NCBI RefSeq assembly: GCF_004799685.1
Contig: NZ_CP031311.1
Location: 2,371,355-2,411,354, forward strand
DNA from: Halobellus limi
GTDB lineage: Archaea > Halobacteriota > Halobacteria > Halobacteriales > Haloferacaceae
Direction of reading: 5' to 3'
Length of the DNA: 40,000 bases
This document shows, in pieces, positions 12,953 through 33,800 of this stretch (position 1 is its first letter; each line of letters begins with the position of its first letter). The notes under the pieces are model-generated. The model did no database searches, was not told the DNA's origin, and saw only the letters and a program-made list of their open reading frames with translations. Position numbers and translations under genes: made by a program.

Positions 12953-13056
12953 TAAAACGCAAATAATTTTTACCGACAGTAAAGCGACGAGTGGGGAATG
13001 CGTAACCATTATGGGTGCAAGAGCCCACTTTAGCGATACGAGGCAACGAAACAACG

Positions 13057-13971: not shown

Positions 13972-14029
13972 CTATGTTCAGTTACGCACAGCCTCATAAG
14001 CAACGAACCGTAAACACACACTACCCACA

Positions 14030-15460
14030 ATGAGTTCCGAACAAGACCACCTCAAAGAGACCGACACCGAGGCCCGCTTCGACTTCAAGAAGGAGGAGAC
14101 CTCGGCGTTCCAGACCGAGAAGGGCCTGACCGAAGAGACGGTCCGCGTCATCTCCGAGGACAAAGACGAGCCCGAGTGGATGCTGAACCGCCGCCTCCGG
14201 GCGCTGGAGCAGTTCCAGGAGATGCCGATGCCGACCGACTGGCCCGGCCAGCCGGACCTCTCGGAGGTCGACATCGCCGAGATCGTCCCGTACATCCGTC
14301 CCGACGTCGACGTCCGCGCGGGCGTCGACGACTGGACCGAACTCCCCGACGAGATCAAAGACACCTTCGACAAACTGGGCATCCCCGAGGCCGAGAAGAA
14401 CGCCCTCTCCGGCGTCGGCGCGCAGTACGAGTCGGAGGTCGTCTACCAGAACATGCAGGAGCGCTGGGAGGAGAAGGGCGTCATCTTCATGAACATGGAC
14501 GAGGCGGTGCAGAAGCACCCCGACATCGTCCGCGAGCACTTCATGACGAAGTGCGTCCCTCCGTCAGACAACAAGTTCGCCGCGCTCCACGGCGCGGTCT
14601 GGTCCGGCGGTTCGTTCGTGTACGTCCCCGAGGACGTCACCGTCGAGATGCCGGTCCAGGCGTACTTCCGGATGAACTCGGAGGGGATGGGCCAGTTCGA
14701 GCACACGCTCATCGTCGCCGAGGACGGCGCGGAGGTCCACTATATCGAGGGCTGCAGCGCGCCCAAGTACTCCGCGTTCAACCTCCACTCCGGCGGCGTC
14801 GAGGTCTTCGTGGGCGAAGACGCCCACGTCCAGTACTCGACGGTCCAGAACTGGTCGAAGAACACCTACAACCTCAACACCAAGCGCGCGCTCGTCGAGG
14901 CCGGCGGCCGGATGGAGTGGATCTCCGGATCGATGGGCTCGAAGGCGACGATGCTGTACCCCTCGACCGTCCTGAAGGGTCCCGGCGCCTCCGACAACCA
15001 CATCACCATCGCCTTCGCGGGCGAGGGCCAGAACATCGACACCGGCGCGAAGGTCTACCACAACGCGCCGAACACGAAGTCGACGATCGAGTCGAAGTCG
15101 ATCTCGAAGGACGGCGGCCGCACCAACTACCGAGGGCTGGTCCACATCGCCGACGGCGCCGAGGACTCCTCGACGTCGGTCGAGTGCGACGCGCTGATGT
15201 TCGACAACGAGTCGACGTCGGACACGATGCCGTACATGGAGATCAACGAGTCGAAGGTCGACGTCGCCCACGAGGCCACGGTCGGGAAAATCGGCGACGA
15301 GGACGTCTTCTACCTCCAGTCGCGCGGTCTCGACGACGACGACGCCAAGCAGATGATCGTCTCGGGCTTCATCGAGCCGATCACGGAGGAACTGCCGATC
15401 GAGTACGCGGTCGAACTCAACCGCCTCGTCGAACTCGAGATGGAGGGGAGCCTCGGGTAA
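14030..15460 (+). CDS. sufB: Fe-S cluster assembly protein SufB
   Basis: 476 aa. It shows SufB-type sequence throughout (FEHTLIVAEDGAEVHYIEGC..., C-terminal beta-helix region) and sits between sufC and sufD. Confidence 0.95.
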   Translation: MSSEQDHLKETDTEARFDFKKEETSAFQTEKGLTEETVRVISEDKDEPEWMLNRRLRALEQFQEMPMPTDWPGQPDLSEVDIAEIVPYIRPDVDVRAGVDDWTELPDEIKDTFDKLGIPEAEKNALSGVGAQYESEVVYQNMQERWEEKGVIFMNMDEAVQKHPDIVREHFMTKCVPPSDNKFAALHGAVWSGGSFVYVPEDVTVEMPVQAYFRMNSEGMGQFEHTLIVAEDGAEVHYIEGCSAPKYSAFNLHSGGVEVFVGEDAHVQYSTVQNWSKNTYNLNTKRALVEAGGRMEWISGSMGSKATMLYPSTVLKGPGASDNHITIAFAGEGQNIDTGAKVYHNAPNTKSTIESKSISKDGGRTNYRGLVHIADGAEDSSTSVECDALMFDNESTSDTMPYMEINESKVDVAHEATVGKIGDEDVFYLQSRGLDDDDAKQMIVSGFIEPITEELPIEYAVELNRLVELEMEGSLG

Positions 15461-16759: not shown

Positions 16760-19700
16760 CTATTCGCGCGGACACGCCCCCGTCGGCGTGACACAGCGCG
16801 GTCCCGGCGACGGATCGCTCCACGCGACGGACCGCTCGTCGGTGTTGCCGTCGGTGTCGCCGACGCCGAACTTTCCGGGCGGCACGACCGCGATGGCGAC
16901 CGTTCGCACGCTGAACTGCACCCGCCTGCTCCGCCCCAGCGACTCCGCGACGCCGTCTCCGTCGACGTCGAGGTCGGCTTCGGAACCGTCGCGGACGTAC
17001 GTCGTCTCGCCGCCCTCGACGCCGACGGCGAAGCGGCCGTACGCGCCGCGGGACTCGACGATCCAGAGGTTCGCCGTGGCGACCCACGGGCTGAGCGTCG
17101 GCGAGATCGGGAGGCCGGCCGGGATCGCGCCGACGGTGCCGTTCGTCGCACGGGAGATTCCCTCTTCGGTGGCGCGCTCGGCGGCGTCGGTCGCCTCCCG
17201 CTCGACGAACTCCCGCGTCGAGGAGACGGCGTCGTCGACGGCAGATTCGGGGACGCGAACGCGCTCGGACGTCGCGACGCGCCGGAGATCGACCCGAAGC
17301 GCGACCCGAATTCGATCCCGGGCGACCGGCGAGGAACCGTCCCGTCCGTCCGACCGCGCCTCGACCGCGACGGCGGCCACCTCGCGGGCCAGCGACCCGT
17401 CGGTGGCCGCGACCGCGCGCTCGCCGGGACCGTCGAAACGGGCGAACGAGCGGTCGACGATCCGTCTGCGCTGGTTCCGATCCAGCGACGTCTCCCGGGC
17501 GAGCGTCCGCGTCGCCGCCGCGCGGACGTCCCCCATCGAGCCCTCGACCTTCGTTTCCAGGACGTCCCGGCGGGCTTCGAGCGTCTCGTCGGGGTGCGTT
17601 TCGAGCGTCCGGTCGGCGGCGACGAGCGCCTGGCCGGCCGTGTGTAGCGACACGCGTCCGGGGTCGCCGAACAGCGTCCGCGTGACGAGGTCCGCGGCGT
17701 CGCCGTAGGGGACGCTGAAGACGTTCACGTTCCTGACCGCGAGGCCGACGTACCGTTCCCCGTCGGCGACGCCATCGACGAGCGTCCCCTCGACGGGGTC
17801 GGGCGCGAGGTAGGCGGGGTCGCCGTCGGGGATCAGCGTCGTCTCGCCGCGAGCGCCCTCGGATCCGCCGAAGTCGGTCCGCGGCGACGGCGCGTCCGGC
17901 GTGAGCTTCGCGAGGTCGTTCACCCGCGAGGCGGCGAGTCCCCTCGCGTCGAGCGCGCGGTCGATGCCGGCGTTCTGCGCGCGCGTTCGTCCGGCGCGCG
18001 CGTCGAGACCGGCGAGTACCTGATCGAGGTACGCGGCGCGAGCGGCCACGCGGGTCCGGTCGGCGACGCCGTCGTACCGGTTCGGGGCGTCGACGAGTTC
18101 CGCGCGCCGGTCGCGAACGAGCGCGGCCAGGCGCGCCGCACCGTTGGCGTGACCGGTCGCCGCGTCGCTGGCCTCTACTTCGATCGAGAGGTCGCGAACG
18201 CGGCCGCGGAGGTCGGCGACGTCGGCGTAGACCCAGGGTTCGAGGTCGGCGGGGCGGTCACCGGTGATCGTTCGCGACGCGCTCGTCCGGCCGCCGGTCA
18301 CGGCCCTGCGAGCGACGGTGTCGGGGCCGCCGAGGTCCGAGACGAGCGTTCGACTCACTTCTCCCGCCTCCTGCAGGTTCGGCCCGCCGAGCGCGCCGCC
18401 GGATTCGAACAGCGGTCGGACGGGTCGCGTCGGTGCCGCGCTCCCGGGGAGTCGGCCGGTGCCCGTGATCCGAACGCGGTGGACGTCGCGCCACGACGCG
18501 GTCGTCGTCCGCGGCGTCTCGTTGACCTTCACCCACGTCCGCTCGACCCGCCACCGCTCGGTGACGCGTCTGGTCGCCGAGTAGAGCCGTCGCTCTTCGG
18601 TCCCGGTTCGGGAGACCGAACGCGTGCTCCCGCCGCCGCTCACGGAGACATCCTTCGAGACATCGGAGAACACGAGCGTCCAGTTCTCACCCGGCGCGCG
18701 CGGCGAGGGGCGGCGCTCGTTTCTGATCGCCCGAGTGCTGGCCCGAACCGAGACGCTCGCCCGATACCCGTCGCGCCGGATCGAATCGAGGCTCGCTGCC
18801 CCGCTCGCTCCCCGGAGGAGTTCCAGGAACGCCTCGTCGGCCGTCCCGTTGACGCCCACCGAGACGGTTTTCGTCGCCGGGAGCGCGCCGGACTCGGGCG
18901 TTTCATCCGAACGCTCGGCCGCGTTCGGGTCCGGGAGTTCACCGGTGACCGCGGAGACGACGTGGCCGTCGGCGTACGGGTCGAGGACGTCGGTCACGCC
19001 GGTCCGAAGCGTCGCCGCGCGGACGCCGGCAGCCGCGTCGGGGTCGCTCCGTCCGAAAGCGGCCCGCTGAGCGTCGAGCAGTCCGGCGTTCGTCGAGAGC
19101 GCGACGTGGCGGTTCGCGACGACGTTCGAGATCGGCAGCCCGCCGTACTGGCCGAGCCCGCGGGCCTGCGCCATCGCCGTGACGCCCACCGTCGTGCGGC
19201 GGGCGAGCCCCGGCGCCTCGATCGGCCCGGCGTCGAGTCGCTTCTGGAACGCGTCCGTTCGGTCGTGGAGCGCCAAGGCGGGGACGCCGACCGTGACCGT
19301 CCGGTCCACCCGACGCGCGTCGAGCGGCCGGCCGTCCCGTTCCACGGTCAGTTCGAGGTCGTAGAGCGTGACCCGGAGTTCGGTCCCGTCGTCGACGCCC
19401 GCGATCGAGACGCGATCGATCGCTTCGGACGCGCTCTCGACCGACTCGCCGAACGACGCGCGGGCCACGCTCGCTCCGCGTCGGTGTTCGACGGGGACCA
19501 TCGCCTCGCGCGCGGCGAGGAAGATCCGAAGTCGGAGATAGCGGCGGAAGGTGTCCGGGCCGTCGAGTGCGCGTCCGGCCTCGGTGTCGGCCGCGACCGT
19601 GACCGGATCGCGCGCGGCGGCCCTCGCGGCGTCGCGAGCGGCGACTCTGAGCGCGGCGGTCGCCTCGGCGTCGACGCGGTCGGCGGCGACGTCGGCCGAG

Positions 19701-19822
19701 CGGTCAACGGGCGCGACCCCCGGCGTCGCGAGCGACACCGCGAACGTCGAACTGGCGACGAGGAGCAGCACGCCCACCAGCGCGAACGGGACCCGGCCGC
19801 GGTCGTCCTCCGCGAGCCGCAT
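16760..19822 (-). CDS. Large (1020 aa) uncharacterised extracellular/anchored protein, last gene of the type-IV-filament-like block
   Basis: Start set at the ATG at 19822, which overlaps the upstream TAA by 1 nt (TAATG). The N-terminus MRLAEDDRGRVPFALVGVLLLVASS resembles an archaeal class III (prepilin-like) signal, D-R-[GA]-x-x-P followed by a hydrophobic helix. I recognise no other domain. There are two Cys near the C-terminus. Confidence 0.8.
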   Translation of the reverse strand: MRLAEDDRGRVPFALVGVLLLVASSTFAVSLATPGVAPVDRSADVAADRVDAEATAALRVAARDAARAAARDPVTVAADTEAGRALDGPDTFRRYLRLRIFLAAREAMVPVEHRRGASVARASFGESVESASEAIDRVSIAGVDDGTELRVTLYDLELTVERDGRPLDARRVDRTVTVGVPALALHDRTDAFQKRLDAGPIEAPGLARRTTVGVTAMAQARGLGQYGGLPISNVVANRHVALSTNAGLLDAQRAAFGRSDPDAAAGVRAATLRTGVTDVLDPYADGHVVSAVTGELPDPNAAERSDETPESGALPATKTVSVGVNGTADEAFLELLRGASGAASLDSIRRDGYRASVSVRASTRAIRNERRPSPRAPGENWTLVFSDVSKDVSVSGGGSTRSVSRTGTEERRLYSATRRVTERWRVERTWVKVNETPRTTTASWRDVHRVRITGTGRLPGSAAPTRPVRPLFESGGALGGPNLQEAGEVSRTLVSDLGGPDTVARRAVTGGRTSASRTITGDRPADLEPWVYADVADLRGRVRDLSIEVEASDAATGHANGAARLAALVRDRRAELVDAPNRYDGVADRTRVAARAAYLDQVLAGLDARAGRTRAQNAGIDRALDARGLAASRVNDLAKLTPDAPSPRTDFGGSEGARGETTLIPDGDPAYLAPDPVEGTLVDGVADGERYVGLAVRNVNVFSVPYGDAADLVTRTLFGDPGRVSLHTAGQALVAADRTLETHPDETLEARRDVLETKVEGSMGDVRAAATRTLARETSLDRNQRRRIVDRSFARFDGPGERAVAATDGSLAREVAAVAVEARSDGRDGSSPVARDRIRVALRVDLRRVATSERVRVPESAVDDAVSSTREFVEREATDAAERATEEGISRATNGTVGAIPAGLPISPTLSPWVATANLWIVESRGAYGRFAVGVEGGETTYVRDGSEADLDVDGDGVAESLGRSRRVQFSVRTVAIAVVPPGKFGVGDTDGNTDERSVAWSDPSPGPRCVTPTGACPRE

Positions 19823-20766
19823 TATCGAGCCTCCGACGTCGGAGACTGCGGTCCCGCCGGAGACGGCGACCACGTCCGGACGACGATTCTGACGGACGAA
19901 ACCGAGACGGCCTCGGCGGCGGCCGCCGGGGCGTCGTACCGGGCGCGCAGATCCTCGGTGAATCGCGGGGCGAGCGCGGCCGCGATCCGCTCGTTCGCCG
20001 CCTCGGTGTCCTCGGTGGCGAGCGGCTCCGCGAGGGACGCGTTGGTCTCCGTTTCGAGGCGGGCGTATCGGTGACGGACCAGCGCGGCGGCCGGGTCGTC
20101 GCCGCGGAGCGTGATGCGAGCGGGGCCCGCGGGGACGAGCACGGCAACGGTCCGCTCGGCGACGGCCGCACCCAGGGAATCGAAGTCTCTCGCCGCCGAC
20201 GCGGGAATCGAGTCGACGCCCGTGGGGACGACGAGCGTCGCGGCGTGAACGCCGTCGGCCGGCGGCTCCGGACCGACGCCGACCGCGCCGCCGACGGGTG
20301 CGCCGGGGTAGGGCTGCCAGGTGGCGTCCACGCGAACGGACGAGCCGGTTCGTGCCCGAACCGCGTCCTCGACGCCGTTTCGGAACGACGCGCGGGTGCG
20401 CGTGAGCGGCGGGACGGCGGCGGGACCGGCCGTCGCGTTCGCGTCGACCGTCGCCGCCGAGTCGATCCCGCTCGTCGTCGTCGCCGCGCGGGCGAGCAAT
20501 CCGGCGAGGCTGCCGTGGGCCGTCCGGTCCAGTTCCGGCGAGTCGAGTGCGATATCGGGAGCGTCGGAGGTCGTCTCGTTCGCGGCCATCCCGCGCACGC
20601 CGGGGGCGAGCGAGTAGTCGACCTGCGCCGTCGTCGTCGCGAGGGCGTCCGCGACCGCGTCGGCCTCGCCGGCCGTCGCGGGCGGGGACTGCTCGACCGT
20701 GACGAGACCGACGACGGCCGCCGAGACGAGGAGTAAGAAGACGACCGCGTCGATGGCGACGTTCAT
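19822..20766 (-). CDS. Uncharacterised N-terminally anchored protein (314 aa)
   Basis: N-terminus MNVAIDAVVFLLLVSAAVVGLVTV, a TM helix directly at the start. The rest is A/T/D-rich and looks soluble. Its stop overlaps the next start. Confidence 0.75.
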   Translation of the reverse strand: MNVAIDAVVFLLLVSAAVVGLVTVEQSPPATAGEADAVADALATTTAQVDYSLAPGVRGMAANETTSDAPDIALDSPELDRTAHGSLAGLLARAATTTSGIDSAATVDANATAGPAAVPPLTRTRASFRNGVEDAVRARTGSSVRVDATWQPYPGAPVGGAVGVGPEPPADGVHAATLVVPTGVDSIPASAARDFDSLGAAVAERTVAVLVPAGPARITLRGDDPAAALVRHRYARLETETNASLAEPLATEDTEAANERIAAALAPRFTEDLRARYDAPAAAAEAVSVSSVRIVVRTWSPSPAGPQSPTSEAR

Positions 20767-20797
20767 CGCCGCACTCCGACGTCGATCGCTCTCCGGT

Positions 20798-21256
20798 TCA
20801 TCGCCACACCCAGACGTCGAGCGTTCCCCAGACGACGTCTCCGTCTCCCGTCGCGACGCTCACCGGACGCTCGGCGTGGTTGACGGGGACGCCCGAAGAC
20901 GCCGGCGGGTGACGCCGGTTCGTCCACGTTCCCGTCGGCGTCGTCACCGCGACCGCGACGCGGTAGCCGTCGGGGACAGCCGGTCCCGCGCTCGGCAGGC
21001 CGACGGGCGAGACCACGCCGCCCTCGCTGACGTCGTCGTACACCCGTTCGAGCGTCGGCTCGGCCAGCGCGTTCTCCGTCTCGTCTGGCGTCACGGCGCC
21101 CAGGGTCGTGGCGTACAGCGAGAGGCCGGTACAGACGGCAAAGAGCGCGATCAGGGCGACGACGGGAGTCGTCTGCGCCCGTGAGGTACCGTCGTCGATC
21201 CGGCAGCGAGCGACGGCGCGCCGCCCGGCGGACTCACGCGTCGACGAGGACGACAT
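20798..21256 (-). CDS. Pilin-like small protein with a class III-type signal motif (start uncertain)
   Basis: The segment ...SRAQTTPVVALIALFAVCTGL matches [KR]-[GA]-Q followed by a hydrophobic helix, as in archaeal prepilins/archaellins. The ATG at 21256 overlaps the upstream gene by 23 nt. Confidence 0.7.
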   Translation of the reverse strand: MSSSSTRESAGRRAVARCRIDDGTSRAQTTPVVALIALFAVCTGLSLYATTLGAVTPDETENALAEPTLERVYDDVSEGGVVSPVGLPSAGPAVPDGYRVAVAVTTPTGTWTNRRHPPASSGVPVNHAERPVSVATGDGDVVWGTLDVWVWR

Positions 21257-21713
21257 TCACTCCCTCCCAGGAGAGGCGGCGGACGATCAGCGTGCGGTCC
21301 ACGGTGCGCCAGGGGGCGTCGCTCGCGTCCGCCCGGGCGTCGACGACGGCCTGCCTGAACGCCTCCGGCGAGTCGAAGGCTCGTTCGGGGGGCGTCCCGT
21401 AGAGGACGTCGCGCAACGGCGATCCCTCGGTCGGAACGGGCGTGACCGGCCCGAACGACAGCGTCGCGTGCGCCGTTCCCGAGTCGGACCGGAGCCCGAT
21501 CCGGCGCGTCCCGAGTCTGATCTCGTCGGCGTCGAGCGGGTGTTCGCCGGTGGCCGCGTACTCCGCGGCGGCGACCCGATCGACCGTCGCCCCGGCGGCC
21601 CCCGCGTCCGGCGGCGGTGCCGTCGGAAGCCCGGCCGCCGCGCCGACGAGCGCGACGCCCGCGAGCGACAGTCCGATCCAGCCGTACCACGCGTCCACCG
21701 TGAGTTCGAACAT
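21234..21713 (-). CDS. Uncharacterised N-terminally anchored protein (159 aa), first gene of the distal sub-operon
   Basis: N-terminus MFELTVDAWYGWIGLSLAGVALVGAAAGL. A TATA box lies 22 nt upstream of the ATG, implying a leaderless mRNA. Confidence 0.75.
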   Translation of the reverse strand: MFELTVDAWYGWIGLSLAGVALVGAAAGLPTAPPPDAGAAGATVDRVAAAEYAATGEHPLDADEIRLGTRRIGLRSDSGTAHATLSFGPVTPVPTEGSPLRDVLYGTPPERAFDSPEAFRQAVVDARADASDAPWRTVDRTLIVRRLSWEGVNVVLVDA

Positions 21714-21743
21714 AGCCCCCCTGGTCCCGCCTCCGTATATAAA
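21714..21743 (-). promoter_or_regulatory. Leaderless promoter P1: TTTATATA-N6-CGGGACCA-N8-ATG
   Basis: Minus strand reads tttatata cggagg cgggacca ggggggct ATG. The TATA box is at 21736-21743, with exactly 22 nt to the ATG at 21713. Confidence 0.65.
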
Positions 21744-21785
21744 GGCTCGTCCCGGAATCGTCGAGGAACGGCCGTCAAATCCACC

Positions 21786-23546
21786 TCAGAACAGCATCGA
21801 CGCGCCCAGGAACGCGACGAGATACGTCGCCGTCGCCGCGAGGAGTGCCAGGCCGATCCGGTAGCCGACGAGCGTCCGATCGAGACCGCGGTCCAGCCCC
21901 GTCGCCACCGCCGTGAGGACGGCCGCGAGCGCGAGGACGTACACCCCGACGGCCGTCCCGAGCGTCGACGGGGAGAGCGTCGCCGCCCCCGGGGCGGCCG
22001 ATCCCGCGAGGGAGGCGCTCTCGGCCGCCGTCGCCCCCGACGCGGCCATCTGGGTGGCCATCGCGACGGTCGCGCCGCCGACGAGCGGGCCGAAGAGCGC
22101 CGCCGTGTGGCTCAGCGTCCCCGTGATCGCCGCGAGTTCGCGTCGCGCCTCGTCCTCGACGCGTCGGAGTTCGGTGAGGTGATCCGCCAGACGCGTGAGC
22201 GTGTCGCCGGCCGGCCGACCCTCCTCGGCGGCGACCGCGAGCAGCGACGCGGTGGCGCGACCCCGGCGGCTCGGGAGGTGTCTGAGCGCGCCGTACTCGC
22301 CGAGGAAGGCGCGGTACACGCCGACGCGGAGTCGACGCTGGACGCCCGAGGCCGACTCGAACAGCTCGCTGGTTCGCCCGGTCGTCGCTGTCGCGGCCGA
22401 TCCGATCGCCGACTCGACCGACTCGCCGGCGCCGACGCGGCGCCCGACGACCGCCGTCGCGTCCGCGAGTCCGCGCTCCGCCTCGTCGACCCCCCGTCGG
22501 ACCGCGGCCATCGGGCGGAAGTGGACCGTAAGCGCCGCGCCGGTCCCCGCGCCGACGGCACCGACGGGGGCCGCCCAGGCGGCGACGGCCGATCCGACCG
22601 CGAATCCGCAGACGGCTCCCACCACGCCCGCCGCGAGCGCCCGCGTCGGGCCGGACGGGACGTCGGGGTGGGCGGCCGTCACGCGGGGTGGCGCGAGCGC
22701 GATGGGGCGTCTGAGGAGGAGCCACGCGCCGGCACCGATCAGGCCGGCCGGGAGCAGGACGTCGTAGAGGACGACGAAGGCGGACGCGGGAACGGTTACG
22801 CCGCCGGCGCGCGCGGCGGGCAACACGCCGACGAGCGCCAGCGGGAGGAGGACGCCGAACGCGTAGATGCCGCTCGCCGGGCCGCGAACGTCGCCCGCGA
22901 ACTCGGCCATCTCGGTGCGCGCGCCGTCGAGAACCGTTTCCAGCGCGCGGTCGAGCGCCGCGTCGCGCTCGTCCGGCGGTGCCTCGACGGCGGCCGACAG
23001 GAGCGCGACGGACCGTTCGAGCGCGGGGAACCAGGGCCGCCACTCCGCGGCGAAGGCGTCGAGGCCGGCGGTCGGTCCCGACCGGGTCCGTTCGGCGTGC
23101 GCGCCGAGGCTTCGAGCGAGCGGTCCCGTCCCCGTCCGTGCGGCGAACGCCGCGGCGCGCTCGGGAGTCGCTTCGAGGCGGAGACGCAGCGCCGCGCGGG
23201 CGACGAGGCCGGGCGCGTCCCCCAGCGCGCGGGTCCGGCGAAGCGTCGCGGCGGCGACGGGGAGGCGGTGAATCACGTGCGTCGCCCCGAGGCCGATGCC
23301 GGCGGCCGCCGGCATCGACGCCGCGACGGGGAGCCCCGGAAGACCGACGAGGAGGGCACAGAGGGCCAGGACCGCGACGGGGACGGCGGCGACGTAACCC
23401 GCGCGGACGACGGTGTCGGCCCGGAGGTCGCTGTCGAGAAACGCCAGCGAGCGGTGGAGTTCGGCCGTCGACTCGACGTCGTTCGGGTACCAGCGGGCCA
23501 GCGACCGCGCGGTTCGGCGGAGTCGAGTCGCCGTCGACGAGGTCAT
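21786..23546 (-). CDS. PilC/TadC-like polytopic membrane protein (type II secretion system F family)
   Basis: 586 aa from the ATG at 23546, which overlaps the ATPase stop by 1 nt (TGATG). It has multiple hydrophobic helices separated by soluble helical domains. Its position directly after a secretion ATPase is the standard arrangement. Confidence 0.8.
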   Translation of the reverse strand: MTSSTATRLRRTARSLARWYPNDVESTAELHRSLAFLDSDLRADTVVRAGYVAAVPVAVLALCALLVGLPGLPVAASMPAAAGIGLGATHVIHRLPVAAATLRRTRALGDAPGLVARAALRLRLEATPERAAAFAARTGTGPLARSLGAHAERTRSGPTAGLDAFAAEWRPWFPALERSVALLSAAVEAPPDERDAALDRALETVLDGARTEMAEFAGDVRGPASGIYAFGVLLPLALVGVLPAARAGGVTVPASAFVVLYDVLLPAGLIGAGAWLLLRRPIALAPPRVTAAHPDVPSGPTRALAAGVVGAVCGFAVGSAVAAWAAPVGAVGAGTGAALTVHFRPMAAVRRGVDEAERGLADATAVVGRRVGAGESVESAIGSAATATTGRTSELFESASGVQRRLRVGVYRAFLGEYGALRHLPSRRGRATASLLAVAAEEGRPAGDTLTRLADHLTELRRVEDEARRELAAITGTLSHTAALFGPLVGGATVAMATQMAASGATAAESASLAGSAAPGAATLSPSTLGTAVGVYVLALAAVLTAVATGLDRGLDRTLVGYRIGLALLAATATYLVAFLGASMLF

Positions 23547-25756
23547 CAGGGGCCTCCGCGGCGGCCCCGGTCGCACGCGTCGGGTGTCGTCAGCGCGGCC
23601 GTCGCGAGGCGGTCGAACCGACCCGCACGTCGTTCCAGTCTCTCGAGGAGGGCGCCGTAGGACTCGTCGTCCCGACAGGACCGCTCGAACACCGCGCTGT
23701 CGCCCCGTTCGACCGCCCCCGTCGACCGGAGCGCGCCCTCTCGGCGTTCGAAGAGGGGAACGAACGTGGCGTCGTCGCCTGCCGCTCGCACCTCCTCGAC
23801 GGCGGCGACGTACCGGGAGTCGCCGTCGCGCGCGCAGGTCACGACGAGGTCCGTCGCGCCGAAGGAGGACGCCGGGACCCCGAGGTCCGAGACCACGCGC
23901 TCTCGGACCGCGGCCGCGGAGTCGCCGTGGATCGTCCCGAGCACGGCGTGGCCGTGCGCGCCGACGCGCATCGCCTCGTAGAGCGACCCCGCCTCCTCGC
24001 CGCGGACCTCGCCGACGACGAGCGCGCCGTCGCCCAGTCTGAGCGCGGCGCGGAGCGCCGCAGTCGGCGAGAAACCCCCGCGGCCGCAGCCGTTCGGTCC
24101 GTTCCTCCGGTTCCCGCTCGCGCCGCCTCCCGCCCCCGCCCCGACGTCGGTGTGCAGTGCCTGCACGTCGCGGCCGTGTTCCCGAAGCGCGTCGACGGGC
24201 AGTTCCGGCGTGTCCTCGATGCTGACGAGCCGGGTCGCCGCCGGGAGTTCCCAGAGCAGCGCGCCGAGGAGCGTGGTCTTGCCGGCCCCTCGCGTACCGG
24301 CGACGATGGTCGCCGCCCCGCGTTCGACCGCGAGCGAGAGGAACGCCGCGGCCTCGGCGGGGAGCGACCCGACGGAGACGAGGCGGGGCAGCGTCCAGGC
24401 GTCGTCGTCGCGGGCGCGGAACGCGAACCCGACGCCCTCGCTCGCGGGGGCCGTCACGCCGGCGACCCGGATCCGCCGGCCCGTCTCGGCGACGACGGAT
24501 GCGTCGAGCGTGGGCGAACTCCGGGAGAACGCGCGTCCGCTCTCGCGCCGGAACCGCGAGGCGAGCGACGCGGCCCCGTCGGGCGTCAGCCGGACGTTCG
24601 TGGGAAGTCGCTCGCCGTCGACGACGACCCGGACGGGCGTCTCAGTCACCGGCGCCGAGACGACCACGTCGGAGACCCGCTCGTCCGCGAAGAGGTGCTC
24701 GAAGACCCCGAGGCCGTGGGTGTGGCGATCCAGAACCGCGGCGAGCGTCTCCGTCGGATCGTCCGGGTCGGCGACGCGCCGCACGGCGCGCCCGGCCGCC
24801 CGCGCTCCGCCGCCGACCGACCCCTCGGCGAGTACCGCATAGGCCGCCGCGAGCGTGGCAGTCGCGTCGGGTTCGAGATCGTGCGCGACCGGAGAGAGGT
24901 GGTAGACCGCTCCCTCCGACTCCCGGCCGTCGTAGATCCGCGCGGTCGCGCCGGTCGGGAGCGAGGTCGTATCGCGGAGCGAGCGGGCCGGCGGCGGACG
25001 ACGGGAGACCCGGGCCCGGGAGACGACGGGACCGACGAACGCACGGAGCGCGACTTGGTAGGGGTCCGGATCGGGGTCACCGGCTCGGGGCTCCACTGTC
25101 GTGGGGCCGACGGATCGATCCCCGCCGTCCGGAACGCGATCCCAGACGCGGTCGGCTCCCGCGGCGAGCCCGGACTCGGCCGCGATCCGCGCCAGCGCTC
25201 CCGCGCGTCCCGTCGCCCGACGCGCGGCCGCGAGCGGATCCGAGCGGGCGCGGTCGGCCAGCGCCTCGTCGTGGAACCGCGCCCGCTCGGCGAACCGGCC
25301 CGCCGCGAGCAGCAGCCCCACCGCCGCGTCGGCGTAGGTCCGTTCGGTCCCGTCCGATCGCGTTCGGACCGCGTCCACGTCGCGCGCTTCGAGCGACGAG
25401 ACCACCGTCGCCCGGCAGGCCGGACTCGACGCCAGGTCGCCGTCGCCGGGACACGCCGACGCGTCGACGACGAGCTCGTGGCGGTCGGTGATTCCGGTCC
25501 CAGCGGGCTGTTCGACCGTCGGACGGCAGCGACACGCCCCGACGGCGGGTACATCCGTCTCGCTCGTCTCACCCTGGGAATCCCCGCCGGTGGCGAGTCC
25601 GAGCGCGGCGGCGAAACCGGCGACGGAAGACGGGAGATCGGCGATCGCGGCGTCGAAGTCGGTGAACGCGTTCGAGCGGTCGGCGAGCGCGGGGACGGCG
25701 CGCGCGGGCGATTCGTCGGTGTCCGGTTCGAGAGCGCGGTCGGGGGTGCGTGTCAT
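23546..25756 (-). CDS. Type II/IV secretion-system family ATPase (FlaI/PilB/TadA/VirB11-like) with an extended Cys-containing N-terminal region
   Basis: 736 aa from the ATG at 25756 (MTRTPDRAL). Walker A GTRGAGKTT (residues 488-495), Walker B-like ALVVGEVRGEEA, His box GTIHGDS. The 1085-aa track ORF is an upstream read-through. A TATA box lies 22 nt before the ATG at 25756. Confidence 0.88.
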   Translation of the reverse strand: MTRTPDRALEPDTDESPARAVPALADRSNAFTDFDAAIADLPSSVAGFAAALGLATGGDSQGETSETDVPAVGACRCRPTVEQPAGTGITDRHELVVDASACPGDGDLASSPACRATVVSSLEARDVDAVRTRSDGTERTYADAAVGLLLAAGRFAERARFHDEALADRARSDPLAAARRATGRAGALARIAAESGLAAGADRVWDRVPDGGDRSVGPTTVEPRAGDPDPDPYQVALRAFVGPVVSRARVSRRPPPARSLRDTTSLPTGATARIYDGRESEGAVYHLSPVAHDLEPDATATLAAAYAVLAEGSVGGGARAAGRAVRRVADPDDPTETLAAVLDRHTHGLGVFEHLFADERVSDVVVSAPVTETPVRVVVDGERLPTNVRLTPDGAASLASRFRRESGRAFSRSSPTLDASVVAETGRRIRVAGVTAPASEGVGFAFRARDDDAWTLPRLVSVGSLPAEAAAFLSLAVERGAATIVAGTRGAGKTTLLGALLWELPAATRLVSIEDTPELPVDALREHGRDVQALHTDVGAGAGGGASGNRRNGPNGCGRGGFSPTAALRAALRLGDGALVVGEVRGEEAGSLYEAMRVGAHGHAVLGTIHGDSAAAVRERVVSDLGVPASSFGATDLVVTCARDGDSRYVAAVEEVRAAGDDATFVPLFERREGALRSTGAVERGDSAVFERSCRDDESYGALLERLERRAGRFDRLATAALTTPDACDRGRRGGP

Positions 25757-25786
25757 AGCGCCGGTGGTCCCGTCTCGGTATATAAA
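25757..25786 (-). promoter_or_regulatory. Leaderless promoter P2: TTTATATA-N6-CGGGACCA-N8-ATG
   Basis: Minus strand reads tttatata ccgaga cgggacca ccggcgct ATG. The TATA box is at 25779-25786, 22 nt from the ATG. Confidence 0.65.
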
Positions 25787-25860
25787 CCATCGGGCGGAGC
25801 GTCGCCCGCGGGCGGTCGAGGTCGATTCGAGCGCGCGCCGATTCAGTCCCGAGCGCCGGT

Positions 25861-26322
25861 TCAGCCCCGCGTGACGACGAGCGTCGGTCGCCCGCCGTCG
25901 CGGACGAGCGCGACGTCGACCGCGTGCCGACCGGGCGCGGTGAAGACGACGGGTCCGTCGGGCGTGGAGACCGGGATCGGCAGCGAGACGCCGCGGAGAC
26001 GCGTCGGCGAGGTCCCGACCGCGTAGGCGACCACCGAGCGGTTTCCCGGCCCGCCCGGACGACCGCCGACCGCGACGAACGCCGGCCGCGCAGTCGTCAG
26101 CGACGCGTCCGGCGTCCGAAACGCCACGCGACGCGTCGCCGCGTACGCCCGCGTCGGCGTGGCGTCCTCGGAGGTCGCGAGGCTCCGGCCAGCGCGTTCG
26201 ATGCGGTCGATCGAACCCGCCAGGTCTGCGTCGGTCCGCGTCGCACGCGCGTCGTCGACGGCCGGGAGCGCGGCCGAGAGCGTCGCCACCGTCAGGACCG
26301 CGGCGACGACCAGCCTGATCAC
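25861..26322 (-). CDS. Uncharacterised N-terminally anchored/secreted protein (153 aa, GTG start)
   Basis: N-terminus MIRLVVAAVLTVATLSAALPAV. GTGA overlap with the upstream gene (26319-26322). Confidence 0.7.
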   Translation of the reverse strand: MIRLVVAAVLTVATLSAALPAVDDARATRTDADLAGSIDRIERAGRSLATSEDATPTRAYAATRRVAFRTPDASLTTARPAFVAVGGRPGGPGNRSVVAYAVGTSPTRLRGVSLPIPVSTPDGPVVFTAPGRHAVDVALVRDGGRPTLVVTRG

Positions 26323-27029
26323 CGGAACGCGTCGCGGAGTCGCGACGCGAGCGAGCCGTCGCTTCCGGGCGAGTCGGTCCGCGGTTCCGCCGCGTCGGCG
26401 TCTGGGCTGACACCGGTGACCCGGGAGGGATCGCGCTCGTCCCCGGAAGCGGCGTCGCCGCCGTTAGTGAGCGTGGAGCCGACGCCGTCACCGTGGGCGC
26501 GCCCGGAACCGACGCCCCCACGGTGGACGCTTTCGACCCCGACGCCGGGGCTGGGACGGTCGCGGGCGTCGGGAACGCGTCCGGACCGGGAATCGCCGTC
26601 GACGGCCTCTGGGGACGCGGGGTCGTCGGTGGTTGCGGCTGACTCCGTCGGTTCCGTCTCGGAGATCCGCTCGCGGACCAGTCCGCGCTCTCCCCCGTCG
26701 AGCCGCCGTTCGAGCGCCTCGACCTTCGCCAGCGCGATCGACGCGCGGCGTTCGATCGACTCGTCGACGGCGTCGATCCCGTCGAGGAGGCCGCGGACCG
26801 CATCGATCTCGGCCTCGACGGCCGTCAGCCGGCGGTCGAACGCGTCCAGCCGTTCTCCCGTGGCGTCAGAGTGGCCGTCGCTCGGAGCGGCCGCGTCCGT
26901 CGAGCCCTCGGCCGGTTCGTGTTCCACTGTCGCCGCAGGGTCGCGCTCGATCGTCCCCGAAGGGTCGTGCTCGGTCGTCGCCGCAGGATCGTGTTCCGTC
27001 GTCGCGACAGAGTCGTGCTCGGTCGTCAT
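26319..27029 (-). CDS. Coiled-coil protein with an N-terminal TTEHDPAA octapeptide repeat and a disordered acidic/Gly-rich C-terminus
   Basis: 236 aa. Five repeats (TTEHDSVA, TTEHDPAA, TTEHDPSG, TIERDPAA, TVEHEPAE). A heptad-like segment ERLDAFDRRLTAVEAEIDAVRGLLDGIDAVDESIERRASIALAKVEALERRL. A TATA box lies 22 nt upstream of the ATG. Confidence 0.75.
   Translation of the reverse strand: MTTEHDSVATTEHDPAATTEHDPSGTIERDPAATVEHEPAEGSTDAAAPSDGHSDATGERLDAFDRRLTAVEAEIDAVRGLLDGIDAVDESIERRASIALAKVEALERRLDGGERGLVRERISETEPTESAATTDDPASPEAVDGDSRSGRVPDARDRPSPGVGVESVHRGGVGSGRAHGDGVGSTLTNGGDAASGDERDPSRVTGVSPDADAAEPRTDSPGSDGSLASRLRDAFR
26915..27029. repeat. 24-bp in-frame tandem repeat, about 5 units
   Basis: Units at 26915-38, 26939-62, 26963-86 and 26987-27010, plus a partial unit at 27011-29 (g(g/a)tcgtg(c/t)tc(g/c)gtcgtcgc(c/g)(g/a)cag). 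Confidence 0.8.
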
Positions 27030-27059
27030 ACCGCCGGTGGTCCCGTCCCGGGATATAAA
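27030..27059 (-). promoter_or_regulatory. Leaderless promoter P3: TTTATATC-N6-CGGGACCA-N8-ATG. The same AT octamer may serve the divergent cetZ gene.
   Basis: Minus strand reads tttatatc ccggga cgggacca ccggcggt ATG. The TATA box is at 27052-27059. On the plus strand it reads GATATAAA, 45 nt before the cetZ ATG. Confidence 0.6.
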
Positions 27060-27104
27060 CGCTCGGCACCAACGTTCAAGGGCCGCTGCCGCGAGACGTT
27101 AGCT

Positions 27105-28190
27105 ATGAAGTCCGTCCTGATTGGCGTCGGCCAGGCCGGCGGGAAACTCGCCCGCGAACTGGTCGAGTACGACGAGCGGATGGGGTTCGGCGCCGTCCGC
27201 GGCGCGGTGGGCATCAACACCGCGAAGGCAGACCTCCGAGACCTCCCCTTCGAGACCGTCCTCGTCGGCCAGGATCGCGTGAAGGGCCAGGGAGTCGGCG
27301 GCGACAACGAACTGGGTGCGGAAGTGATGCAGGCCGACATCCAGGAGGTCCTCGCGTCGCTCGACGGCCGCGTGACCGCCGGGACCGAGTCGATATTCGT
27401 CGTCGCCGGCCTCGGCGGCGGCACCGGCAGCGGCGGCGCGCCGGTCCTCGCGAAGGAACTCAAGCGCATCTACGACGTTCCCGTCTACGGTCTCGGGATC
27501 CTCCCCGGCCGCGACGAGGGCGCGATGTACCAGGTGAACGCCGGCCGCTCGCTGAAGACCTTCGCCCGCGAGGCCGACTCGCTGCTTCTGGTCGACAACG
27601 ACGCCTTTCGATCGAGCGGCGAGAGCGTGACCGAGGGGTTCGACTCGATCAACCGAGAGATCGCGAAGCGGGTCGGTCTCTTGCTCGCCTCGGGCGAGTC
27701 CGTCGAGGGGGTCGCCGAGAGCGTCGTCGACTCCTCGGAGATCATCAACACCCTCCGAAACGGCGGGATCGCCGCGCTCGGGTACGCGTCCGCGGAGGCC
27801 GCGCCCGAAGCCGAGGACAACATCAACGCGGTGATGAGCACCGCCCGGCGTGCGTTGCTCACGGGATCGAGCCTCCCGGACGCGACCGACGCCGACGCGG
27901 CCCTCCTCGTCGTCGCCGGCGAGCAGGACGCCATTCCGCGGAAGGGCGTCGAGCGCGCCCGCCGCTGGGTGGAAGAGGAGACGGGGAGCCTGCAGGTCCG
28001 CGGCGGCGACTTCCCCCTTTCGAGCGGCCGCCTCGCGACGCTGATCCTCCTCGGCGGGGTCGAGCGCTCCGACAGGCTGGAGGCGTTTATGCAGCGTGCG
28101 AAGGACGCCGAGAAGGAGGACGAAACGACCCCCGAGCGGGCGTCTCCCGGAGAGCAGTGGACGAACGACGAACTCGACGACCTGTTGTAG
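27105..28190 (+). CDS. cetZ: CetZ-type tubulin/FtsZ-superfamily protein
   Basis: 361 aa from the ATG at 27105 (MKSVLIGVGQAGGKLA). Tubulin signature GLGGGTGSGGAPVLA. Overall CetZ-like layout with an acidic C-terminal tail. The upstream 78 codons of the track ORF are R-rich junk. Confidence 0.9.
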   Translation: MKSVLIGVGQAGGKLARELVEYDERMGFGAVRGAVGINTAKADLRDLPFETVLVGQDRVKGQGVGGDNELGAEVMQADIQEVLASLDGRVTAGTESIFVVAGLGGGTGSGGAPVLAKELKRIYDVPVYGLGILPGRDEGAMYQVNAGRSLKTFAREADSLLLVDNDAFRSSGESVTEGFDSINREIAKRVGLLLASGESVEGVAESVVDSSEIINTLRNGGIAALGYASAEAAPEAEDNINAVMSTARRALLTGSSLPDATDADAALLVVAGEQDAIPRKGVERARRWVEEETGSLQVRGGDFPLSSGRLATLILLGGVERSDRLEAFMQRAKDAEKEDETTPERASPGEQWTNDELDDLL

Positions 28191-28263: not shown

Positions 28264-29610
28264 CTACTTACAGAGGCTCGCGCCGTCGAACTCCGCGCGG
28301 GCGTAGTCGACGTCCATCAGGTCCAGAATCGTCGGCGCGATGTCGTAGAGGTCGGCGTCCGTGATCTCGACGTCGGGGTCGTCGACGAACAGCGACGCGT
28401 TGTCGAAGCTGTGCATCCCGTTCCGGGGGCCTTTCCCGAAGACGTCTTCGTGGCCCTTGAAGCCGGACTTGAGGTCGAACCCGTGGTTGGGAACGACGAC
28501 GAGGTCCGGCGCGATGTCGTCGTGATCGCCGCGGAAGGCGTCCTCCTTCTCGACGACGCGCTCGGCGACCTTCCGCCCGTTCGGCCCTTCGAGGGTTTCC
28601 AGTTCGGCCTTGAGTTCCTCGCGCGTCTCCTCGTACTCGTCTCTCGGAACGCTCCCCCGCGGTTCGCGGCCCTCGAGGTTGATGTAGAACCGCCCCGGGA
28701 TGAGCGAGTACGCTCGCGTGTCGTCGGAGATGTCGCCGAGTTCCTCGTGGTCGTCGTCCTCGTAGGAGAGCCAGCCCTGCTCTTCGAGCCAGGCGTTGCA
28801 GTGGACCTCGTGGTCCAGCGACGTGAAGCCGTGGTCCGAGGCGACGACGAGCGTGACGTCGTCGGGCAGTGACTCGCGGATCTTCCCGACGTACTCGTCG
28901 ACCTTCTCGTAGAACTCGACGAAGGCCTCCCTGTTCTCGCCGTCGCGCTCGTAGTCCGCGAAGAGGAAGTGGTTCACGCGGTCGGTCGTCATGAAGACGC
29001 CGAAGAAGAGGTCCCAGTCGTCGCGTTCGAGGACGGACGAAAACGCCTCGTAGCGTCGGTCGAGCGTCTCGTGGGCGTTCTCGACGAAGTCCGACTTGTC
29101 GTCGTCGTGGCCGAGTTTGGCGTTGACGTCGATTCGGTAGTCCATCGAATCGAGTTCGTCGCGGAACTCCTCGGGGTGGGCGGCCTTCTTGACGCCCGGC
29201 GAGAGGAAGCCCGAGACCATCCGCTGGACGTTCCGCTGCGGCGGGAACGTCACCGGGACGTTCATCACGCTGGCCTGTCGGCCGTCGTCGGTCACGCGGT
29301 CCCACAGACGCGTCGCCTGCACGTCCCGACCCATCGGAACGTAGGTGTCGTAGGAGCCGTTCTCGCGGTCCTGGAAGCCGTAGACGCCCGTCTCGCCCGG
29401 GTTCACGCCGGTCGTCAGCGAGGGCCAGCAGGCGGAGGACTCCGGCGGGACGATGCTCTCGATCGCGCCGGCGGTGCCCTCCGCCCTCAGCGCGGCGAAG
29501 TTCGGAAAGGTGTCGGGGTTATCGGCGAGGAGACTGAAGGGTACGCCGTCGATACCGATGAAAGCGACGCGCGGATTATCGTCTCCGCGCAGCCGGTCGA
29601 ACAATCCCAT
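28264..29610 (-). CDS. Alkaline-phosphatase-superfamily protein (type I phosphodiesterase/nucleotide pyrophosphatase-like)
   Basis: 448 aa. N-terminal FIGIDGVPF metal-ligand motif, a C-terminal-half SDHGF motif and GMH. Typical of the AP/NPP superfamily. Confidence 0.75.
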   Translation of the reverse strand: MGLFDRLRGDDNPRVAFIGIDGVPFSLLADNPDTFPNFAALRAEGTAGAIESIVPPESSACWPSLTTGVNPGETGVYGFQDRENGSYDTYVPMGRDVQATRLWDRVTDDGRQASVMNVPVTFPPQRNVQRMVSGFLSPGVKKAAHPEEFRDELDSMDYRIDVNAKLGHDDDKSDFVENAHETLDRRYEAFSSVLERDDWDLFFGVFMTTDRVNHFLFADYERDGENREAFVEFYEKVDEYVGKIRESLPDDVTLVVASDHGFTSLDHEVHCNAWLEEQGWLSYEDDDHEELGDISDDTRAYSLIPGRFYINLEGREPRGSVPRDEYEETREELKAELETLEGPNGRKVAERVVEKEDAFRGDHDDIAPDLVVVPNHGFDLKSGFKGHEDVFGKGPRNGMHSFDNASLFVDDPDVEITDADLYDIAPTILDLMDVDYARAEFDGASLCK

Positions 29611-29805
29611 ACGGGTCGTATTCCGCCGTGAGTCATAAGAAGTTTCGTCTCTACGCGAACTGCTGCCGCCGTCTCCGACGAGAATCGTGATCGTGGGTCG
29701 CTAACACGGCACACGAACGGGGACGACCGACAGGTCCGATCCGGGCTGGTCGTCTCTCACGGCGAAGGAGCGAAGTAGACGCCGCCGTAAGGAGAGACAA
29801 GAGCC

Positions 29806-30258
29806 GTGAAGGAGTTCGAGCGAAAGCAACTGCTGGAGCGCGTCAATCGCGAGGGCGCGACGGTGGGCGCGGAGATCCCCGACGAGATCGACGTACAGGG
29901 CGAAGAGATCGCGCTCCGGGAGTTCGTCTTCGAGATCAAGCGCCGCGACACGGTCCCGAAAGGCGAGCGCGACCGCGTCGAGGAGGCGAAGAAGAACCTC
30001 CGCCGGGAGCGCTTACAACGCCTCCAGCGGATCGAGGAGGGAGAGATCCCCTACGAGGAGGGCGAGCGCCTCGCCGAGAGCATCGTCGGCATCGACCGCG
30101 CGCTGAACGCGCTCGAACAACTGCGACCGGTCGATATCGAACAGGAGGCCGAGGTGCAGGAGACCGCCGACCGGAAGCGCTGGATGCGCTTCCTGAAACA
30201 GGCCCTCGGCCACAGGGACGGGAGTAACACGAGCGGTCGCGGAGGGGGGCGGCCGTGA
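29806..30258 (+). CDS. Small highly charged helical protein (150 aa, GTG start) translationally coupled to polX
   Basis: K/R/E-rich helical sequence with coding-like codon usage. Its TGA overlaps the polX GTG (GTGA at 30255-30258). I believe it belongs to a haloarchaeal DUF family often seen beside polX (from memory, unverified). Confidence 0.7.
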   Translation: MKEFERKQLLERVNREGATVGAEIPDEIDVQGEEIALREFVFEIKRRDTVPKGERDRVEEAKKNLRRERLQRLQRIEEGEIPYEEGERLAESIVGIDRALNALEQLRPVDIEQEAEVQETADRKRWMRFLKQALGHRDGSNTSGRGGGRP

Positions 30259-32009: not shown

Positions 32010-32022
32010 GAGACGCCGGAGG

Positions 32023-32118
32023 GAGTACTCCGCAGATAATAATTACTCTCGTCTCGTACCGCCGAGCGCCGTAAACGGGGGTATCGGCGGTAAAAAGTGA
32101 GAGCAATCACGGTGAGAC
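32023..32118 (+). repeat. Intergenic repeat family, copy R2 (long imperfect hairpin) between polX and the Mut7-C gene
   Basis: Perfect 9-bp stem taccgccga (32057-65) / tcggcggta (32084-92). Outer stem ctctc (32046-50) / gagag (32099-103). It shares blocks with R1, and a 27/30-nt match (inverted) with R3. Confidence 0.7.
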
Positions 32119-32119
32119 G

Positions 32120-32669: not shown

Positions 32670-32681
32670 TTCGCGATCGGG

Positions 32682-33686: not shown

Positions 33687-33800
33687 ACCGGGTACTTCGT
33701 GATCACCACACAAAACGATGCGTCAGACGGACGCACGACAGCCCGCCGATCGACCTTCGAAAAAATCGGTGTGAGCCCTCCTGTCACGGCGTGTCGAAGG

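Follow-up and report, generated by a model that had tools for sequence, protein, structure and literature searches.

An eight-gene block beside cetZ in Halobellus limi is a member of type IV filament subsystem 4F and carries a shared promoter-like element

Eight open reading frames (ORFs), all on the minus strand, fill positions 16760-27029 of the 40-kb stretch of Halobellus limi DNA analyzed here (the window), and a tubulin-like cetZ gene diverges from them across an intergenic region of 75 bp. All eight lie at the coordinates given by an initial annotation of the sequence, and their called frames have a GC content at third codon positions (GC3) of 0.84-0.91, in a window whose GC content is 62-77%. 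A Pfam profile search, one of the checks which that annotation had suggested, matched every product to a family: T2SSE for a secretion-superfamily ATPase, T2SSF for a PilC/TadC-like platform protein, and DUF7310, DUF7311, DUF7283, DUF7285, DUF7284 and DUF7286 for the six accessory proteins (Table 1). The T2SSE and T2SSF matches uphold the earlier placement of the block in the superfamily of type IV filaments (TFF). Its description as a set of mostly uncharacterized proteins stands only in part, because all six accessory products have Pfam families, while their roles are predicted only. As shown below, the cluster is a member of a catalogued and widely conserved kind, subsystem 4F, and not a new system. 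The divergent cetZ and a structure of three promoters within the block had both been missed.

Table 1 Positions of the eight cluster genes, the shared promoter elements and cetZ in the window
Feature	Positions	Strand	Profile match or context
DUF7310 protein, 236 aa	26319-27029	-	Pfam E 1.3e-15
DUF7311 protein, 153 aa	25861-26322	-	Pfam E 1.1e-42
Secretion-superfamily ATPase, 736 aa, PilB2-type, arCOG01818	23546-25756	-	T2SSE E 2.6e-20
PilC/TadC-like polytopic platform protein, 586 aa	21786-23546 (alternative GTG at 23576)	-	T2SSF E 9e-6
DUF7283 protein, 159 aa	21234-21713	-	Pfam E 3.8e-56
DUF7285 protein, 152 aa	20798-21256	-	Pfam E 1.3e-35
DUF7284 protein, 314 aa	19822-20766	-	Pfam E 1.8e-82
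DUF7286 protein, 1020 aa	16760-19822	-	Pfam 1156 bits
CetZ tubulin-like gene	27105-28190	+	Pfam CetZ_C E 5e-65, plus Tubulin
Promoter element P1 (TTTATATCCCGGGACGGGACCA)	27038-27059	-	8 nt 5′ of DUF7310 ATG
Promoter element P2 (TTTATATACCGAGACGGGACCA)	25765-25786	-	8 nt 5′ of ATPase ATG
Promoter element P3 (TTTATATACGGAGGCGGGACCA)	21722-21743	-	8 nt 5′ of DUF7283 ATG

Four junctions within the block are overlaps. DUF7310 and DUF7311 are translationally coupled through GTGA at 26319-26322, the ATPase stop codon and the platform ATG share TGATG at 23546, DUF7283 and DUF7285 overlap by 23 nt (21234-21256), and DUF7284 runs into DUF7286 through TAATG at 19822. These overlaps had been read correctly before, but the coupling is not uniform: the block is interrupted by gaps of 104 nt 5′ of the ATPase and 72 nt 5′ of DUF7283, each of which contains a promoter-like element, and by 31 nt between DUF7285 and DUF7284. 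Around this last spacer (20764-20801), GGCGATGAAC is present twice in H. limi, the copies lying 33 nt apart; copy 1 overlaps the DUF7285 stop codon and copy 2 contains the DUF7284 start. DUF7285 and DUF7284 overlap or abut in other Halobellus loci, and the paired copies look like a small duplication that yields a 12-codon mini-ORF between the two genes.

The neighborhood is conserved well beyond H. limi, another point that the initial annotation had wished to see checked. The same eight genes, in unchanged order and with cetZ diverging from them, are found in further Halobellus species, in Halogeometricum borinquense and Haloferax mediterranei, and again in Haloferax volcanii, Halorubrum trapanicum and Halorientalis litorea, with 75-140 bp between cetZ and DUF7310 in five genera. 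In Halomicrococcus the ATPase gene and the five that follow it, as far as DUF7286, are retained, with no cetZ, DUF7310 or DUF7311 in front of them. The shared gene order was seen in 6 genera, with H. volcanii among the species. A query of the genome collection with the ATPase alone returned only the Halobellus loci and three unrelated bacterial ATPases (L008-L010); the wider synteny was assembled protein by protein. The ATPase of the window matches a Halobellus limi protein at 100% identity and its Haloferax counterparts at 54-55%, and the platform protein is 50-79% identical to its orthologues. The CetZ of the window shares 75% identity with the correspondingly placed H. volcanii gene and, judged by synteny, is the CetZ2 orthologue. 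The H. volcanii locus sits between CdpA (HVO_0739) and an HVO_0758 family gene, and by gene counting its eight orthologues would be HVO_0746-0753, next to cetZ2 (HVO_0745). In the loci of other genera, DUF5791, an epimerase and a DHH protein come after DUF7286. This trio is absent near the Halobellus cluster, which has convergent sufD-sufB where DUF5791/arCOG04674 (helix-turn-helix, HTH), epimerase and DHH genes usually follow in other 4F loci.

The features described for subclade 4F of Halobacteria are an ATPase with a Cys-rich N-terminal domain, a unique, Halobacteria-specific coiled-coil protein inside the cell (arCOG07564, the ‘aspartate-rich component’), a protein of S-layer-like or surface type and an ftsZ-like neighboring gene (Makarova, Koonin & Albers 2016). 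Co-localization with cetZ2, a CBS protein or an SMC homologue is a further mark of the group. Table S4 of that study lists the subclade_4F locus of Haloarcula hispanica as arCOG07564, arCOG10216 (‘predicted major pilin’), the arCOG01818 ATPase and the arCOG01814 TadC protein with 9 transmembrane (TM) helices, continuing with arCOG04673, arCOG05166 and arCOG06291 (pilins), arCOG02945 (surface protein), arCOG04674 (HTH) and arCOG03095 (epimerase). The H. limi cluster follows this layout closely. Its arCOG01818-type ATPase carries an N-terminal extension of ~330 aa in which four Cys are invariant in 12 orthologues; the TadC/PilC platform gene lies directly 3′ of the ATPase gene, as arCOG01814 does in Har. 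hispanica; and the DUF7310 coiled coil (22% Asp plus Glu, no TM helix) occupies the position of arCOG07564, to which it would correspond from position and features. The accessory genes match the order arCOG10216/04673/05166/06291/02945, at 153/159/152/314/1020 aa compared with about 123-157/153/131/292/1000 aa, and the same accessory Pfam families are found in H. volcanii and other genera. With the divergent cetZ, the cluster thus has the eight genes, order and sizes of 4F as it appears in the literature, and shares its Cys-rich ATPase N-domain, Asp-rich coiled-coil protein, ~1000-aa surface protein and cetZ neighbor (Makarova, Koonin & Albers 2016; Brown & Duggin 2023; Sivabalasarma & Albers 2026, preprint).

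The same cluster has been met from the side of the cytoskeleton. A pilB2/C2 type IV regulon was found to adjoin cetZ2 in Haloferacales and Halobacteriales, with a distribution that resembles that of a mobile element and a role given as unknown (Brown & Duggin 2023). A recent preprint likewise reports that TFF subsystem 4F co-localizes with CetZ2 and has an adhesin-like arCOG02945 protein, and that the visible pili of H. volcanii come from pilBC3 only (Sivabalasarma & Albers 2026). CetZ2 of H. volcanii is induced in stationary phase, maintains plate shape and moves along cell edges, in a study that does not address the 4F cluster (Brown & Duggin 2026). Full-text literature searches found no indexed paper that mentions the DUF names or HVO_0746-0753, and the ‘pilB2’ of Natrinema and Halobacterium papers refers to other loci. 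The view that the layout matches no characterized system therefore needs to be divided: the accessory set occurs in none of the characterized machines, but the identical order had already been catalogued as 4F. As the ATPase and platform pair, judged by orthology with the H. volcanii locus, falls in a catalogued clade whose accessory roles are predicted ones, that view is weakened and not refuted.

The ATPase retains the residues expected of a working enzyme. The twelve orthologues show no variation in Walker A (GTRGAGKTT), the Asp box (IEDTPELP), Walker B (GEVRGEEA) or the His box (LGTIHG), nor in C75, C77, C102 and C114 of the N-terminal extension, arranged as C-x-C, then CPGxGxL, then CRxTV. 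This four-Cys domain is probably a metal site, and from its motifs the protein is expected to be an active enzyme with a system-specific N-domain. A PDB sequence search gave generic secretion ATPases only, the nearest solved relatives being A. fulgidus GspE2 (afGspE2, 2OAP), CpaF and FlaI. NCBIfam equivalog models score it at 113 bits for TadA (TIGR03819, cut-off 373), 75.7 bits for ArlI/FlaI (NF058587, cut-off 550) and 45 bits for BasE (NF053672, cut-off 1000). These values fall so far under the cut-offs that the machine is not an archaellum, bindosome or Tad system, in agreement with the initial annotation for the first two.

Comparison with better-known machines gives partial likenesses. 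The archaellum also has a FlaI-family ATPase and a TadC-family platform (ArlI/ArlJ), and the small bitopic leaderless proteins of 4F resemble ArlF/ArlG, as its coiled-coil protein, a cytoplasmic or anchored scaffold, resembles ArlX/ArlCDE. In contrast, the H. limi window contains no archaellins, ArlH or che genes, nor ArlF/G/C-D-E, and a structural tree separates 4F from archaellum ATPases (Sivabalasarma & Albers 2026, preprint). No prepilin peptidase, archaellum (arl) or chemotaxis (che) gene occurs anywhere in the 40-kb window, as had been noted for the immediate surroundings. On the side of the Tad/Flp pilus and the pseudopilus of type II secretion systems (T2SS), CpaF and TadA are among the ATPases closest to that of the cluster, and in both systems a small pilin goes together with minor or tip pilins of larger size, whereas the H. 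limi cluster lacks a secretin, TadZ, RcpA or TadE/F family protein. Ups and Aap pili are known from Sulfolobales only. The PilB3-PilC3/PilA1-6 adhesion pili of H. volcanii (clade 2) share the ATPase and platform core; their pilins are encoded in trans and processed by PibD, and the R-[G/A]-x-x-P signature of the cluster resembles Pilin_N. They differ in that their ATPase belongs to another clade and the accessory proteins of the cluster do not match Pilin_N/DUF1628; the cluster further adds anchored proteins, a coiled-coil protein and a giant pilin-like protein.

Published work on 4F calls most of its accessory proteins pilins, whereas here only DUF7285 and DUF7286 keep a [K/R]-[G/A] site before a hydrophobic H-domain across orthologues. 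The earlier observation that just two accessory proteins carry a class III (prepilin-type) motif thus extends to the families as a whole. In DUF7285 the site reads R-[A/G]-Q-x-x-P, followed by a hydrophobic helix (R and A/G each 39/39, Q 29/39, P at +4 37/39). DUF7286 has the N-terminus DDR-[G/A]-RVPFALVGVLLLV, where R, A/G and P are each present in 42/42 and R-V-P-F-A-L is nearly invariant, closely like the archaeal Pilin_N pattern RGVSPLVGV of a control pilin. The other N-termini differ. DUF7311 starts with M-I/L-R and enters its TM helix from residue 1 (MIRLVVAAVL...), which leaves no room for a class III leader, and nearly all of 150 relatives among the matches listed in an exhaustive search align from their own residue 1-6. 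By position DUF7311 is arCOG10216, Makarova's ‘predicted major pilin’; a role as a PilA-family major pilin is unsupported, the listed relatives being leaderless and without Pilin_N signal. DUF7283 has an anchor, MF[DE]xxxDAWYxW, followed by a PTAPPPDA linker, with neither an R-[G/A] site nor a constraint on G/A. DUF7284 has a short N-terminus with an invariant Asp6, then A/V/T, then a TM helix; its class III status is ambiguous on these features, and the family at its position is FlaFind-positive in the table of Makarova et al. (2016). Paralogy among the small accessory families was considered and no relationship was detectable: hhalign gave probabilities of ≤0.9% for DUF7285 against DUF7284 and DUF7283, and for DUF7311 against DUF7285 and DUF7283.

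The two class III proteins were modeled with AlphaFold2 (AF2; confidence given as predicted local distance difference test, pLDDT). DUF7285 (pLDDT 80) has a TM helix followed by another helix and a sheet of four strands, and DUF7286 (pLDDT 77) is a multidomain alpha/beta protein with a large mixed ectodomain and a C-terminal beta domain. By position DUF7286 is arCOG02945, the ‘surface/adhesin-like protein’. Its C terminus (16760-17100) carries two family-wide DxDxDG-like motifs, YVRDGxxVxLDVDGDGxxE and GVGDVDGNADE, and a conserved Cys pair lies at the very end; together these suggest a Ca-binding extracellular beta domain. A Foldseek search of the DUF7286 model against viral models gave no match below E 0.01. 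DUF7310, present in the same position in all orthologous loci with these genes in front, is acidic and comprises N-terminal 8-aa tandem repeats (at the DNA level 24 nt, 4.1 copies, 26929-27027), a conserved central coiled coil and a disordered tail. Two database proteins add to the picture of DUF7311: P0502 fuses it to the ATPase, probably by read-through of the intergenic spacer, and P0499 continues into an acidic C-terminal region that to the eye resembles a beta-sandwich domain, a hint at an extracellular location of the DUF7311 domain.

The three gaps 5′ of DUF7310, the ATPase and DUF7283 share the element TTTATAT-N7-CGGGACCA-N8-ATG. Exact matches in the window number three, with zero expected, none elsewhere and none in 100 shuffles. 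In a relaxed form, all 27 matches in ~285 kb of orthologous loci from seven genera precede the same three genes. The remaining promoters of the window lack the CGSGRCCA part, and cetZ too is without the shared element. The TATA box lies at -30 to -23 from the ATG, which would place the transcription start at or next to the start codon, so that, by known haloarchaeal promoter geometry, the three units would give leaderless mRNAs. Since the element precedes three genes, the ‘eight-gene operon’ resolves into three units predicted to be co-regulated: DUF7310-DUF7311, ATPase-PilC and DUF7283-7285-7284-7286. This predicted three-unit structure and the shared element are new in this analysis. Between the shared TATA box and the cetZ start (27060-27104) lies a near-palindrome, CTTGAACGTTGG, which L001 and L006, both of them Halobellus loci, retain as CTTCAACGTTGG and which L014 retains in part. 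The P1 TATA box is itself nearly symmetric (ATATAAA/TTTATAT) and could therefore serve cetZ in the opposite direction.

The element is also found beyond the cluster. A metagenome scan with the pattern TTTATATAC-N5-CGSGRCCA-N8-9-ATG returned 100 stretches, of which ~45 precede 4F units, a circular result in view of the 4F promoters from which the pattern had been built. A further 15 precede a protein of ~150 aa that carries D-x-R-[G/A]-IEGLP-[VI]-RLVIALVVGVA and an immunoglobulin (Ig)-like DUF7382 domain. These 15 proteins are only 32-100% identical to one another (median 50%), and the element has therefore been retained across divergent orthologues. In one lineage (L081, L054 and L048) the DUF7382 gene is divergent from the DUF7310 gene of a distant 4F cluster, with 45% identity between its ATPase and that of H. 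limi, and so takes the place held by cetZ in our window. There is no DUF7382 gene in the window, nor within ±10 kb of other clusters. A stand-alone 4F pilin of 148 aa, arCOG02981, has been listed (Makarova, Koonin & Albers 2016), and DUF7382, which fits this description, is probably this family.

Other matches to the element concern different genes. A canonical Pilin_N-type pilin (MASRGVSPLVGVLCLLVV...) bears it with 9-nt spacing to the ATG in L028, L042, L077 and L086, and in L034 it stands ~140 nt upstream of what is, judged from sequence, a lipoyl-synthase-like gene. About 20 matches have no ORF downstream; there the transcript would start AUG-NNN-UGA and continue into a structured RNA (L027, L031, L033, L034, L056, L057, L067, L070, L076, L080, L082, L088-L090, L094, L098, L101, L109 and L113; for example L082:820-969:+). 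A CUGUUCGC motif and a conserved helix, GYGRCA...UGYCRC, mark this RNA; of the 6 pairs of the helix, 5 show compensatory changes. An Rfam search matched it to no family at gathering score.

The eight genes are under purifying selection. Pairwise ratios of non-synonymous to synonymous substitution (dN/dS) against Halobellus captivus are 0.15-0.27 for the ATPase, PilC and DUF7283-7286 (DUF7283, 0.15), 0.43 for DUF7311 and 0.56 for DUF7310, compared with 0.12-0.14 in the flanks. The cluster genes are accordingly real and subject to selection, but evolve faster than their neighbors. Cluster GC is 75% against 66-67% in the flanks, and in every genus examined (the window, L001, L006 and L011-L016) it lies 4-9 points above the flanks. 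Recent horizontal transfer as the source of the high GC was rejected for this reason. The cluster proteins are Ala/Arg/Gly-rich, with 8-14% acidic residues except in DUF7310. They are nearly Lys-free and weakly acidic, which is atypical for haloarchaeal proteins, surface proteins included.

Past cetZ lie genes for a type I phosphodiesterase, DUF5788, PolX, Mut7-C, a CdpA-like protein and DUF5789, a block (28264-34113) that is syntenic in Halobellus, Haloferax and Halogeometricum (L011, L014, L016). On its other side the Halobellus cluster shows a rearrangement, with sufD in place of DUF5791-epimerase-DHH; here the convergent sufD and sufB are followed by a family B DNA polymerase gene (polB, 8674-12816) split by an intein that has Hint and LAGLIDADG domains. 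At 13006-14033, upstream of sufB and sufD, one would expect a SufC-type gene. The ORF listed at 13011-14033 has no Pfam match, and GC by codon position favors another frame, 13006-13971. The rest of the window includes EndoIII, Rad50/Mre11-like proteins and a PAN-like AAA ATPase.

Our best explanation, held with moderate confidence, is that the block is the Halobellus limi orthologue of TFF subsystem 4F, equivalent to the H. volcanii pilB2/pilC2 locus beside cetZ2, and that it works as follows. The PilB2-type ATPase, with its four-Cys N-domain, and the PilC2 platform would drive extraction of pilins from the membrane and their polymerization. The cluster-encoded substrates would be the small DUF7285 and the 1020-aa DUF7286, both of which bear the invariant R-[G/A]-x-x-(x)-P site and would be cut by the single prepilin peptidase of the genome (PibD), encoded elsewhere. 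The Ca-binding-like C-terminal domain of DUF7286 fits a subunit that is most likely an adhesin, at the tip or of low abundance, and the bulk subunit is probably supplied in trans by the class III, Ig-like DUF7382 protein that shares the element in metagenomes. DUF7311, DUF7283 and DUF7284 are more likely a membrane-anchored assembly or alignment scaffold, comparable to ArlF/G or PilN/O, than filament subunits. The cytoplasmic coiled coil of DUF7310 may link the ATPase to CetZ2 for positioning, as their conserved adjacency suggests. The three putative leaderless units under shared TTTATAT-N7-CGSGRCCA-N8-ATG promoters imply one dedicated regulatory input. On this reading the cluster encodes a machine for an adhesive pilus or a short filament, with the giant DUF7286 on display, possibly positioned via the coiled-coil protein and CetZ2.

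Several observations weigh against this explanation. No filament or phenotype has ever been tied to the 4F locus. No Pfam pilin model matches any accessory protein: Pilin_N (PF07790), archaellin and FlaG models gave no match even at E 10, while a metagenome pilin used as positive control does match Pilin_N. Foldseek searches of the DUF7285 and DUF7286 models against the PDB returned no pilin or adhesin fold, and nothing below E 0.01. The family at the arCOG10216 position, to which the major-pilin role had been assigned, has no class III site here, and DUF7382, the putative arCOG02981, is a candidate for the major subunit. The element also precedes a NucS_N plus Zn-ribbon protein, a Cas4-like protein, DUF7857 and the structured RNA, and may therefore mark a broader promoter class and not a TFF regulon. 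Finally, the link to CetZ2 is one of adjacency, and the core six genes of Halomicrococcus do without a nearby cetZ, DUF7310 or DUF7311.

The sparse set of class III proteins, just two in the cluster, one small and one giant, would also suit a T2SS-like pseudopilus or surface-display device, in which a short DUF7285 piston or stub pushes DUF7286 through the S-layer or holds it there, with no need of a separate major pilin. It would fit with this that DUF7286 is always the last gene of the pilin unit, translationally coupled, and that no abundant pili have been attributed to the 4F locus in H. volcanii. We nevertheless regard such a device as unlikely: no secretion substrate or S-layer conduit is known in archaea, and the DUF7382 class III protein, which bears the shared element and lies adjacent to a distant 4F cluster, fits a major pilin acting in trans. 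The position of cetZ, divergent and 75-140 bp from DUF7310 in five genera, would fit a different account, a cytoskeleton-coupled envelope complex whose main role would be the CetZ2-dependent control of shape or the cell edge in stationary phase, and not adhesion. DUF7310 and DUF7311 would then form an ArlX-like anchor and coiled-coil scaffold that joins the ATPase to CetZ2 filaments. The stationary-phase upregulation and cell-edge movement of CetZ2 in H. volcanii, and the coupling of a cytoplasmic coiled coil to a TM-anchored partner, agree with this proposal. However, in Natrialbales cetZ2 is present but the cluster is not, some species have the cluster but no cetZ2, and cetZ itself lacks the shared promoter element, so that we find this account very improbable.

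The cluster could also be what is left of a cassette acquired by horizontal transfer, largely silent, drifting and now functionless, as its 75% GC, its Ala/Arg/Gly-rich and weakly acidic proteins, its faster evolution than that of its neighbors and the mobile-element-like distribution (Brown & Duggin 2023) might suggest. This has very little to recommend it in view of a GC excess common to all genera examined, dN/dS values of 0.15-0.27, a 1020-codon ORF that is intact in all loci, invariant catalytic and class III residues, and a conserved element. The 4F filament machine set out above remains our preferred account of the block.

Haloarchaea have several orphan type IV filament machines, and subsystem 4F, present in many genera beside a tubulin-like cytoskeletal gene, is one of them. 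The present analysis turns what was a catalogue entry into testable statements, namely two prepilin-type substrates, three putative leaderless units and, in DUF7382, a candidate major pilin encoded in trans, and H. volcanii, with its orthologues (by our count HVO_0746-0753) and genetic tools, would allow direct testing. A bolder proposal, decidedly unlikely at present, is that 4F is no ordinary adhesion pilus but a stationary-phase envelope machine placed by CetZ2, which shows a 1000-residue Ca-binding pilin-like protein at the cell edge and is switched on through a dedicated element that it has in common with the trans-encoded DUF7382 pilin and an unannotated structured RNA. If true, this would make 4F a new functional class of archaeal type IV filament machine, physically coupled to a tubulin-family cytoskeleton.

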